64,000 nt of DNA from NCBI RefSeq assembly GCF_022846255.1, contig NZ_AP025682.1, one strand, 5' to 3'. The position numbers were made by a program. This stretch comes from Escherichia coli (GTDB lineage: Bacteria; Pseudomonadota; Gammaproteobacteria; Enterobacterales; Enterobacteriaceae). Shown one piece after another: positions 8,231 through 11,200 of the stretch. Positions within the stretch are counted from its first letter, which is position 1. Every line of letters starts with the position of its first letter.

Positions 8231-11200
8231 TACAAATTGCGAAAATCCAATAGATTGCGACTCCCTTGTAGGCCTGATAAGCGTGGCGCATCAGGCACTT
8301 GCTCCCCGAACGTTGAATGAATTGTGGTTCTTATGTCCGAAACAAAAAACGAACTTGAAGACCTGCTGGAAAAAGCAGCAACCGAACCGGCTCACCGCCC
8401 GGCCTTTTTCCGTACTCTACTGGAATCCACCGTCTGGGTGCCTGGTACGGCGGCGCAGGGCGAGGCAGTAGTTGAAGATAGCGCGCTTGATTTACAGCAC
8501 TGGGAAAAAGAAGACGGCACCAGCGTCATTCCTTTTTTTACCTCGTTAGAAGCACTTCAACAGGCGGTTGAAGACGAACAGGCATTTGTCGTAATGCCCG
8601 TTCGCACATTGTTTGAGATGACCCTTGGCGAAACGCTCTTCCTTAATGCCAAACTGCCAACCGGTAAAGAGTTTATGCCGCGTGAAATCAGTTTGTTGAT
8701 TGGTGAAGAAGGGAATCCGCTGAGTAGCCAGGAAGTACTGGAAGGCGGTGAATCGCTGATATTATCGGAAGTCGCAGAGCTGCCAGCACAAATGATTGAT
8801 TCACTCACCACCTTATTTAAAACCATTAAGCCGGTGAAGCGTGCTTTTATTTGTTCAATTAAAGAGAACGAAGAGGCACAGCCTAATTTACTTATTGGCA
8901 TTGAAGCCGATGGTGATATCGAAGAAATTATTCAGGTGGCGGGAAGTGTAGCGACCGATACATTACCTGGCGATGAGCCCATCGATATTTGTCAGGTGAA
9001 AAAAGGGGAAAAAGGAATTAGCCACTTTATTACCGAACATATTGTGCCATTCTATGAACGTCGCTGGGGTGGTTTTTTGCGTGACTTTAAACAGAGTCGG
9101 ATAATCTAAAATATGCCGCCCCAAAGGGCGGCATTCGGGCTTACTTGCTGCTCTGAAGTTTGTTAACCACCAGTAAATTGTCGCCGGAGAGACTCCGGTT
9201 ATTATTTACCTCGGTTAACAGCGCACCAGAAACAATAAGTACGATACAGAAGCACCGTATCTTCATTGTGCGGTCCATGCGAAGACCGCATCACGACAGC
9301 ACCACTGGCGATATTGCCGCGATAGCAAGCGCTGTGAAACACCTGCATTTACGGCCATGGAACATCCTTTCCTTAAGCCAGCGCCCGTTTGCGAGACGGC
9401 GGAAAGGGCCGGTGTCGATAATACGCTAAATAAACAATGATTGCTCTCTTTCGCTTGACAAAAAGAGAGTTACTGGCGAGTATTGCTTTGCTGTGAAGCA
9501 CCTGCGTTGCTCATGCAACACAAGCCAATCTGCTGGAAAGGCCGCGAACCAAACCAGCAACAAATAACCGCCTGATTTTGGCGGTTTTTTGTTGTTTAAA
9601 GAAAGTGAAATTACACGTTTAAGTAATATCTTTTACCAGTTAGTATTTTAATATTAAGCGGGATTTGTTTATATTTGTCTGAATTCGGACTGATAAGCCA
9701 AATGAATTCAAAATCTATCCTTTTTTATCTACTTGACATCGTTGATGCATAAAGCGAGTATTGAGTAGACGAGATACACTTGCAGTAATACAACCTGCTG
9801 GAAAGGCCGCGAACCAGACCAGCAATAAAAAACCGCCAAATTCGGCGGTTTTTTATTGCCTGTAAAAAGCTTATTTTACGGGCTCAACCGGTAAATCTGC
9901 TCGTGCGCCCCATTCACTCCATGCGCCGTCGTACAGTTTCACGTTTGGCACATCAAGTGTCGCGAGTGCCAACAAAACCACGGCTGCCGTTACACCAGAG
10001 CCGCAGCTGACGATAATAGGTTTGTCATAACTTACGCCGCGACCAAAAAATATCGCATCCAGTTCATCGGTCGTTTTTAGTTCACCTTCGCGCACCAGTT
10101 CCGTCCACGGAACATTTAGTGCACCGGGAATATGTCCGCGACGTAAACCTGGGCGAGGTTCATCAACTTCTGCGTTAAAACGTGCAGCCGGGCGGGCATC
10201 GATAATTTGCGCCGTATTTTCATGGCTTGCCAATAACACATCGGTTACTTTCACCACGGCTTCAGGATTAAACGCGGCGTTAAACTCTCCTTCCGGCAGC
10301 TCTACTGCGCCTTCTTCTAATAGCAGATCATCACGCTGCCAGCCTGCAAGTCCACCACCCAGAATCGACACTTTCTCTACACCAAAGGTGCGCAGCATCC
10401 ACCATGCTCGTGGGGCTGAGAAAAGATTACCTTCGTCATAGACAATCAGGTGCTTATCCTGGTTAACGCCTAATTCACGCATCGCCACGGCGAACGTTTC
10501 CGGGCGCGGCAGCATGTGCGGAAGCGGGGAAGTGTGATCAGAAAGCGCTTCTATATCAAAAAACACTGCGCCGGGAATATGTCCATTCAGATACTCCTGA
10601 GCAACGTTACGATCTTCCTGTCCAGGCGACGCCATGCGGGCATCGATAATCTGAATTTCCGGGTCATCAATATGTTCGGCGAGCCAGTCGGCTCCTACAA
10701 ACCATGTCGTGGACATAGGCATCTCCATTTTTGCCGGGGTTAGGCTAAATTGTCGGATGTTTAGTGAAAGGCGACAAGCAAAAGAGGCTGATTTGGCTGT
10801 CTGAGCCACAATTCTCACTAAAATTCGGATTGTATGGGCGTGATACTGAATTACATAACGTAAATTCTCACGCATAATAATTATTCGACGTTGCTAACGG
10901 GCCATTGTGGCAGGGATGAAAAATGAAAAAGTTACGCGTAGCCGCCTGCATGCTAATGCTGGCGCTGGCAGGGTGCGACAACAACGATAACGCGCCAACA
11001 GCGGTGAAAAAAGATGCGCCTTCTGAAGTTACTAAAGCGGCCTCTTCAGAAAACGTGAGTTCAGCAAAACTTTCCGCGCCAGAGCGACAAAAACTGGCCC
11101 AACAGAGTGCCGGTAAGGCGCTGACATTGCTGGATCTCTCTGAAGTTCAACTTGATGGCGCAGCCACGCTGGTGCTGACATTCTCCATCCCTCTCGACCC

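Follow-up and report, generated by a model that had tools for sequence, protein, structure and literature searches.

Two predicted TimR-family antitoxin RNA genes, one apparently an orphan, beside a single ryfA/timP between sseB and sseA of Escherichia coli

The interval between sseB and sseA was analyzed in a 64,000-nucleotide stretch of Escherichia coli contig NZ_AP025682.1 (RefSeq assembly GCF_022846255.1), hereafter referred to as the window. sseB ends at 9109 on the plus strand and the stop codon of sseA lies at 9871 on the minus strand. Three RNA genes are located between them: ryfA, the mRNA of the small toxin TimP, on the minus strand, and two tandem, paralogous promoter-to-terminator units on the plus strand (unit 1 and unit 2), which probably encode RNAs of the TimR family, the antitoxin RNA of the timP–timR (ryfA) type I toxin–antitoxin locus. 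The features, with allele and seed classes (alpha, beta, gamma) as defined further below, are as follows.

9108–9412, minus strand: ryfA RNA, the timP toxin mRNA and predicted target of unit 1 (Rfam RF00126, 311.7 bits, full length 1–296)
9141–9266, minus strand: intact TimP open reading frame (ORF) of 41 amino acids, MKIRCFCIVLIVSGALLTEVNNNRSLSGDNLLVVNKLQSSK (NCBIfam NF040796 toxic_TimP, 83.8 bits against a cutoff of 45)
9331–9349, minus strand: TimR binding site in ryfA (nucleotides 64–82, alpha allele), predicted by pairing from local alignment to the unit-1 5′ end
9455–9483, plus strand: predicted promoter of unit 1, −35 TTGACA at 9455–9460 and −10 GAGTAT at 9478–9483 (pattern search)
9490–9590, plus strand: unit 1, predicted alpha-seed TimR transcript of ~101 nt; seed 9490–9508, hairpin 1 9506–9519, core hairpin 9530–9560, terminator 9566–9590 (homology to K-12 b4811)
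9548–9724, minus strand: Rfam "IS128" match covering the spacer between the units and the reverse complement of the unit-1 3′ end and terminator (RF00125, 164.8 bits)
9733–9761, plus strand: predicted promoter of unit 2, −35 TTGACA at 9733–9738 and −10 GAGTAT at 9756–9761 (pattern search)
~9768–9854, plus strand: unit 2, predicted gamma-seed TimR paralogue transcript of ~87 nt; seed 9768–9784, core hairpin 9795–9825, terminator 9826–9854 (homology to K-12 b4811)

The ryfA match is the only one returned by Rfam within the window, which bears out the placement of ryfA in the sseB–sseA interval noted in the initial annotation of this stretch. timP is annotated at the corresponding position in E. 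coli genomes, and the NF040796 match identifies an intact small hydrophobic toxin gene adjoining the RNA units, as in a type I toxin–antitoxin system. Unit 1 starts at 9490 (plus strand), 78 nt beyond the ryfA 5′ end at 9412 (minus strand), so that the positions of these two genes agree with the published divergent timR–timP layout (PMC7667032). Unit 2 lies on the same strand as unit 1, 356 nt from the ryfA 5′ end, where K-12 annotates timR.

The motif TTGACA-N17-GAGTAT occurs exactly twice in the window, both times on the plus strand, with no match in any of 100 shuffles. The spacers of the two promoters are unrelated (3 of 17 nt identical between the two matches), and the annotated K-12 timR with its transcription start is preceded by the same hexamers at the same spacing. 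Retention of the hexamers at constant distance within an unrelated spacer suggests that unit 2 is, or recently was, expressed. Downstream, a 31-nt core, CTGCTGGAAAGGCCGCGAACCA(A/G)ACCAGCAA, is present in exactly two copies (9530–9560 and 9795–9825); no further copy was found in the window at up to three mismatches, and none is expected by chance. Each unit is closed by a GC hairpin with a run of six T's. The stem of the unit-1 terminator occupies 9566–9586 with a T-tract extending to 9590, and the unit-2 terminator, which spans 9826–9854, is symmetric and is located 17 nt past the sseA stop codon; it could thus also serve sseA, as proposed in the initial annotation. A generic scan listed the unit-1 terminator on both strands and left the unit-2 terminator unlisted, presumably because the stem of the latter can be extended through its A and T runs. 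When transcript ends were transferred by homology from the annotated K-12 timR (b4811), RNAs of 101 and 87 nt were predicted, within or close to the 90–110 nt estimated at the outset, and both predicted RNAs folded better than all 200 of their shuffles (z = −3.1 for unit 1 and −5.4 for unit 2). The tandem arrangement described initially, with its shared promoter motif, core and terminators, is therefore confirmed at 9455–9590 and 9733–9854 on the plus strand, and its promoter and terminator features are conserved.

The identity of the units was approached through the K-12 locus and a covariance model. The MG1655 annotation places a 100-nt non-coding RNA, timR (b4811), 17 nt from the end of sseA, at the position of unit 2; unit 1 is 89% and unit 2 80% identical to it. 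Alignment of the K-12 locus to the window, a check suggested at the outset, disclosed that K-12 also carries two units, of which the ryfA-proximal one is unannotated. The two window units are 73% identical to each other overall, with the identity concentrated in their 3′ halves (54 of 61 columns) as opposed to their 5′ parts (20 of 40). A covariance model was built from 16 TimR sequences of six genera, with both window units in the training alignment, and returned exactly two strong matches in the window (9489–9590, 96.3 bits; 9767–9854, 85.4 bits). Five loci held out of the alignment (L004, L006, L086, L077 and L122) scored 64–112 bits with the same model. The weaker matches at the locus fall on the opposite strand over the terminators, and a match at 17180–17281 (E = 0.73) is at chance level. 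No TimR family match was returned for the window by Rfam 15. Taken together, these sequence comparisons suggest, with a probability that we put at roughly 85%, that both units are TimR-family small-RNA genes, that is, genes for the antitoxin RNA of the timP–timR locus.

The initial annotation had left it unsettled whether the units derive from ryfA, duplicate part of it, or represent separate small RNAs. Separate small RNAs are favored: the only ryfA match (9108–9412) lies on the opposite strand and overlaps neither unit, and neither unit matches ryfA in Rfam at E ≤ 1, so that an origin inside ryfA or by duplication within it was rejected. The covariance model of the family matches both units, and the Rfam RyfA model matches neither. 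It is very improbable that the units are REP-like repeats, parts of ryfA or small protein genes instead of small-RNA genes. Such a reading could draw on short ORFs of 24–34 codons that overlap both units, and on the "IS128" match on the opposite strand over the unit-1 3′ end. "IS128" carries no annotation in MG1655 (NC_000913.3), and whether it represents a gene is doubtful; the family may describe a spacer, or the wrong strand, instead of a genuine small RNA. Against a dispersed or REP-type repeat, which the initial annotation had named as a possible refutation, the core has two copies in 64 kb, and each E. coli genome has one to three, all of them chromosomal and confined to loci of this kind, with none on plasmids. 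The 5′ regions differ between classes by insertions and deletions that are incompatible with a conserved reading frame, which makes coding of small proteins unlikely; on inspection no ribosome-binding site precedes the short ORFs, and the homologous K-12 unit is annotated as non-coding RNA.

The same RNAs carry other names elsewhere. Salmonella TimR was formerly STnc2070, divergent from timP, itself formerly ryfA (PMC7667032), and in Shigella dysenteriae the RNAs are called RyfB1 and RyfB2, each beside its own RyfA1 or RyfA2 (PMC5333039). That both units are probably copies of a characterized antitoxin RNA, TimR/RyfB, was missed in the initial annotation. The K-12 names RyfB and RyfC were also considered for the two units. 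RyfC we take to be OhsC. RyfB is listed as the shoB mRNA in the supplement of PMC4606813, and the equation was rejected. The K-12 names are therefore unrelated to the Shigella RyfB1 and RyfB2.

The family was then compared across genera. A scan of the genome collection with the ryfA stem pattern gave 120 loci, most of them chance matches in unrelated phyla because the pattern is too GC-palindromic, and 15 enterobacterial loci could be used. A common architecture is found on the opposite strand just upstream of ryfA in Escherichia, Citrobacter, Superficieibacter, Yersinia, Rahnella and Erwinia. It begins with a variable 5′ seed that in each species is complementary to that species' own ryfA, at roughly nucleotides 64–87, followed by a 5-bp hairpin 1 with compensatory changes at two pairs, an invariant core hairpin (GCUGG-AAAGGCCGC..ACC.GA-CCAGC) and the terminator; all three hairpins were recovered by RNAalifold. 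Unit 2 departs from this plan in that hairpin 1 is incomplete, its 5′ half being absent through an 8-nt deletion relative to the beta type. Among the 16 TimR sequences of the six genera, only that of Rahnella bruchi departs from the core loop AAAGGCCGC, by one substitution. The loop occupies alignment columns 46–73 (9532–9558 and 9797–9823 in the window), is predicted to be unpaired, lies outside the pairing seed and could be a protein-binding site. A role for the core loop (GGAAAGGCCG) as a second pairing site for the ryfA 5′ end (antisense CCGGCCCUUUCC), or as an ancestral antisense trace of it, was considered and found unsupported: similarity between the two outside the seed is at chance level (195 of 1000 shuffles for unit 1, 154 of 1000 for unit 2), and no covariation between the TimR loop and the ryfA 5′ end was seen across genera, the ryfA end varying while the loop stays constant. 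The shared core, to which the initial annotation drew attention, is a conserved family scaffold, and specificity and function reside in the 5′ ends that are not shared.

At three of the enterobacterial loci the TimR match overlaps the ryfA 5′ end: in Citrobacter amalonaticus (L086, TimR 8026–8127 and ryfA 8069–8340), Yersinia similis (L077, TimR 4526–4619 and ryfA 4554–4837) and Yersinia aleksiciae (L122, TimR 5331–5440 and ryfA 5125–5409). In all three the seed continues directly into antisense sequence of stem-loop 2, as though a deletion between direct repeats, namely the seed and the antisense of its target, had removed both promoters; alternatively, the overlaps may represent a true cis-antisense arrangement. 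In Y. similis, Rfam Ysr224 adjoins ryfA on its upstream side, and another terminator-like repeat (CCGCCTTTATGGCGG and then T's) is found ~200 nt further on.

The two units differ sharply in their complementarity to the resident ryfA. Local alignment of the unit-1 5′ end to ryfA nucleotides 64–82 gave 17 identities to the antisense over 19 positions, equivalent to 17 Watson–Crick pairs, one G·U pair and one mismatch, so that 18 of 19 positions are paired; a pattern search likewise located the complement of the first 16 nt of the seed at 9331–9346 with one mismatch. The predicted duplex reaches −36.2 kcal/mol (RNAduplex, whose energies ignore target structure), and in a separate comparison none of 500 mononucleotide shuffles equalled the score of the seed against ryfA. 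ryfA nucleotides 64–82 correspond to the loop of stem-loop 2 (SL2) in the structure published for Salmonella (PMC11228461), so that the 5′ end of unit 1 shows the complementarity expected of a TimR, to SL2 in the 5′ untranslated region of the resident timP. In unit 2 such complementarity is found only toward the gamma ryfA of other strains. With the resident ryfA it yields −15.4 kcal/mol, and 213 of 500 shuffled seeds reach its score in the shuffle comparison; with the gamma-type ryfA (…TGCAAGTGTATCTCGTC…) of strain LR-28, all 17 of 17 seed positions pair at −31.3 kcal/mol. No other complement of the gamma seed was found in the window at up to three mismatches. Since its seed fits gamma ryfA only, unit 2 is classed as an orphan TimR paralogue and not as the antitoxin of this timP. 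The two small RNAs proposed initially as possible siblings are paralogous but not redundant, their 5′ ends differing in predicted target specificity.

Published work on homologues suggests how unit 1 would act. The 5′ end of Salmonella TimR pairs with the timP 5′ untranslated region, blocks TimP translation and abolishes toxicity (PMC7667032); binding at the SL2 loop destabilizes the pseudoknot that stem-loops 1 and 3 form and that translation initiation requires (PMC11228461, PMC13000454). In the window, each unit would be transcribed from its own sigma-70-type promoter into an RNA that opens with an unpaired, variable seed at its 5′ end and continues with a small hairpin, of which unit 2 has only part, the core hairpin with its invariant loop and an intrinsic terminator. 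The unit-1 seed would pair with the stem-loop 2 loop in the timP 5′ untranslated region, ~65–85 nt upstream of the start codon, and this pairing would destabilize the pseudoknot required for ribosome loading; with loading blocked, the membrane toxin TimP would not be made. Unit 2 would share the scaffold and carry a seed specific for a gamma ryfA allele absent from the locus, making it an orphan antitoxin RNA. Anatomy, homology, complementarity and population distribution in this account come from the present analysis, and transcription, translational repression and the pseudoknot mechanism are carried over from the homologues. By analogy with Salmonella, unit 1 is very probably the functional antitoxin RNA of the resident timP.

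Comparison of the window with nine E. coli loci from annotated complete genomes sorted the ryfA variable regions into three classes, each with a corresponding class of TimR seed; sequences are given here on the TimR strand.

Alpha class: ryfA variable region GCTGTGAAACACCTGC; matching TimR seed GCTGTGAAGCACCTGC
Beta class: ryfA variable region GCTGAGACGCGCTTGC; TimR seed identical to the ryfA sequence
Gamma class: ryfA variable region GACGAGATACACTTGCA; TimR seed identical to the ryfA sequence

Predicted duplex energies set cognate pairs (−31 to −37 kcal/mol) cleanly apart from non-cognate pairs (−15 to −26 kcal/mol). The window thus combines ryfA-alpha with an alpha seed in unit 1 and a gamma seed in unit 2. 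In the gamma allele, the variable stretch of five nucleotides reads TGTAT (reverse complement of the fetched sequence), which is not among the four variants listed in PMC5333039 (TGTTT, CGCGT, CCCCC and CACCC).

The arrangements of these classes vary between strains. Written from sseB to sseA in the orientation of the window, with ryfA alleles denoted A and TimR units R, they are as follows.

A-alpha, R-alpha, R-gamma: window
A-gamma, R-alpha, R-gamma: LR-28, MSB1_4I
A-beta, R-beta, R-gamma: 118UI, ST69, WCHEC005784
A-alpha, R-beta, ryfA 5′ fragment, R-alpha: K-12, INSC1002
A-alpha, R-alpha, sseB fragment, A-beta, R-beta: MS14385 and nine further genomes
A-beta, R-beta: MEI3A-1023

In every classified locus of the E. 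coli clade, each ryfA copy has its cognate TimR unit, and the unpaired element is always a TimR and never a ryfA. The position of the cognate copy differs by strain, being ryfA-proximal in the window and distal in K-12 and LR-28. A look-up of the exact TimP protein found only genomes with two-module alpha/beta arrangements. The 3′ halves of the units are position-specific (proximal …CAACAAA(T/A)AACCGCCTGATTTTGGCGG, distal …CAATAAAAAACCGCCAAATTCGGCGG); seeds shuffled between positions while the 3′ halves remain fixed point to recombination within the conserved promoter and core. Several individual loci deserve mention. In K-12 MG1655, the second TimR (L001, 1682–1778, minus strand) carries a beta seed, lies beside ryfA and scores 108.9 bits with the covariance model; a beta ryfA is absent from K-12, and a 46-nt insertion ahead of b4811 duplicates the ryfA promoter region together with the first ~16 nt of ryfA. 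In MSB1_4I (L009, ~1748–2566), an IS1A just upstream of the gamma unit removes the −35 region and separates the unit from its promoter; this gamma unit is the sole cognate partner of the ryfA-gamma of that strain. In INSC1002 (L003, ~3300–4700), an IS3-like ISEcB1 is inserted within the terminator of the distal TimR.

The distribution was quantified in 5,426 complete E. coli genomes. The TimR scaffold was found at 7,703 places in 5,425 genomes, with one to three places per genome and none on plasmids, and ryfA at 5,576 places in 5,415 genomes, leaving roughly 2,100 surplus TimR units across the collection; about 40% of the genomes appear to have more TimR units than ryfA copies. A locus with two TimR genes to one timP is therefore common, K-12 included. 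The alpha seed is present in 2,145 genomes and alpha ryfA (at least 95% identity) in 1,974. The gamma unit is present in 394 genomes and gamma ryfA in 39, so that the gamma unit lacks its cognate allele in at least ~355 genomes, assuming that no gamma alleles were missed through sequence variation. The exact 801-nt combination of the window, at ≥95% identity over its full length, was found in none of the complete RefSeq E. coli genomes, the best match being LR-28 at 94.7%. An origin of unit 2 by simple deletion of a second ryfA-gamma copy was considered; no intact second gamma module was seen among the genomes inspected.

For unit 2, a leftover of recombination between allelic toxin–antitoxin modules, with little effect on the resident timP, is somewhat the better bet, and we infer that it is without function at this locus. 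It is unlikely that unit 2 instead represses the resident timP as a second functional antitoxin, serving for backup or tuning through partial seed complementarity in a two-antitoxin, one-toxin system. Its intact promoter hexamers, scaffold and terminator, the 12 pairs (−15.4 kcal/mol) predicted with ryfA nucleotides 65–78, and the frequency of TimR excess among E. coli genomes would all be consistent with such a role; the seed nevertheless matches the resident ryfA no better than shuffled seeds do, it fails to pair with the resident allele at 5 of its 17 positions and with the gamma allele at none, and RyfB1 overproduction in S. dysenteriae reduces RyfA1 without reducing the near-identical RyfA2 (PMC5333039). 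Retention of unit 2 for the regulation of other mRNAs in trans, unrelated to timP, is improbable. In avian pathogenic E. coli, deleting timR as well abolishes the phenotypes of a ryfA deletion, which the authors take to mean that TimR acts without RyfA (PMC13188913), and a core loop invariant over six genera suggests constraint beyond seed pairing, perhaps by a protein partner. No such target is known, however, the window holds no other seed complement within three mismatches, and the perfect match to a natural ryfA allele explains the seed sequence without other targets.

A wider reading of the region, which we consider decidedly unlikely though a shade less so than regulation in trans, treats the sseB–sseA interval as a recombination hotspot in which TimR seeds and ryfA variable regions are exchangeable specificity cassettes (at least three classes here, more in the literature), and in which surplus TimR genes are selected either as "immunity", or anti-addiction, against incoming non-cognate timP or as regulators of other targets. 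It is allowed by three observations: the 3′ halves stay with their position and the seeds move between positions, only the antitoxin and never the toxin is left unpaired, and the promoter hexamers of unit 2 are preserved in an unrelated spacer.

Several points weigh against the account of unit 1 as an active antitoxin and of unit 2 as a recombination remnant. TimP toxicity and its repression by TimR are known from Salmonella, and production of the peptide from ryfA is undemonstrated in E. coli and Shigella (PMC5333039, PMC13188913). Transcription of both units is predicted only: the −10 hexamer is weak by consensus (GAGTAT equals TATAAT at 3 of 6 positions), and the generic promoter scan listed neither promoter, so that their support comes from conservation and the K-12 annotation. 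Unit 2 keeps a perfect −35, the family −10 at unchanged distance although the sequence between is otherwise unrelated, and an intact terminator, and thus looks maintained and not in decay. Its 12-pair interaction with the resident ryfA falls within the range of some trans-acting small RNAs, and the duplex energies take no account of target structure. Its orphan status, finally, was judged within the 64-kb window, and a gamma ryfA may be present elsewhere in the genome.

The organization can be set against known systems. Like TimR of Salmonella Typhimurium (STnc2070) and K-12 timR (b4811), the units lie at the sseB–sseA locus, are divergent from ryfA/timP, and are predicted to measure ~100 nt and to end in an intrinsic terminator; unlike these, they number two per timP, the seed of unit 2 misfits the resident timP, and its hairpin 1 is without the 5′ half. 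The closest parallel in copy number is S. dysenteriae, where RyfB1/RyfB2 and RyfA1/RyfA2 likewise comprise two paralogous, divergent ~100-nt RNAs at the same locus with complementarity overlapping the ryfA "variable region", and where regulation is allele-specific (PMC5333039); there, however, each RyfB has its own RyfA in two complete modules, whereas the second module of the window is without a ryfA. Pairing of a small hydrophobic toxin with a divergent small RNA through limited complementarity in the 5′ untranslated region is shared with tisB/IstR-1, shoB/OhsC, zorO/OrzO and dinQ/AgrB (PMC7667032), with the differences that no sequence relationship exists and that timP is controlled by a pseudoknot switch and does not depend on RNase processing (PMC11228461, PMC13000454). 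Rfam also gives unit 2 a weak AgrB match (28.8 bits, below the cutoff of 40), to which the terminator contributes most. The Ibs/Sib systems of E. coli are multi-copy type I loci whose paralogous antitoxin RNAs discriminate their own toxin mRNAs, and they too combine a common scaffold with variable pairing segments that set cognate specificity. Unlike the window RNAs, which would act in trans from a divergent gene and of which one copy is partnerless, Sib RNAs are fully overlapping cis-antisense transcripts, each with a toxin of its own.

The TimR family, its mechanism and the existence of paralogous copies are already published. In the literature searched, no mention was found of surplus TimR genes in many E. 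coli strains including K-12, of discrete seed specificity classes including gamma, or of the surplus copy being usually non-cognate. These findings leave the known mechanism unchanged and bear in practice on annotation and on the reading of deletion mutants. Annotation names at most one timR at the locus: K-12 names the sseA-proximal copy only, and the RefSeq annotations inspected name none. A "ΔtimR" or "ΔryfA" strain may retain a second TimR, which calls for care in deletion studies. The three natural seed and allele classes further offer a ready-made specificity matrix for recognition of timP stem-loop 2 by TimR.

Outside the sseB–sseA interval, Rfam also matched an iscRS stability element (1743–1852, plus strand, 135 bits) and sroE (22518–22609, plus strand, 117 bits), and a series of very large ORFs of 731, 326, 784, 724, 332 and 2,693 amino acids runs along the plus strand from 28035 to 45615.

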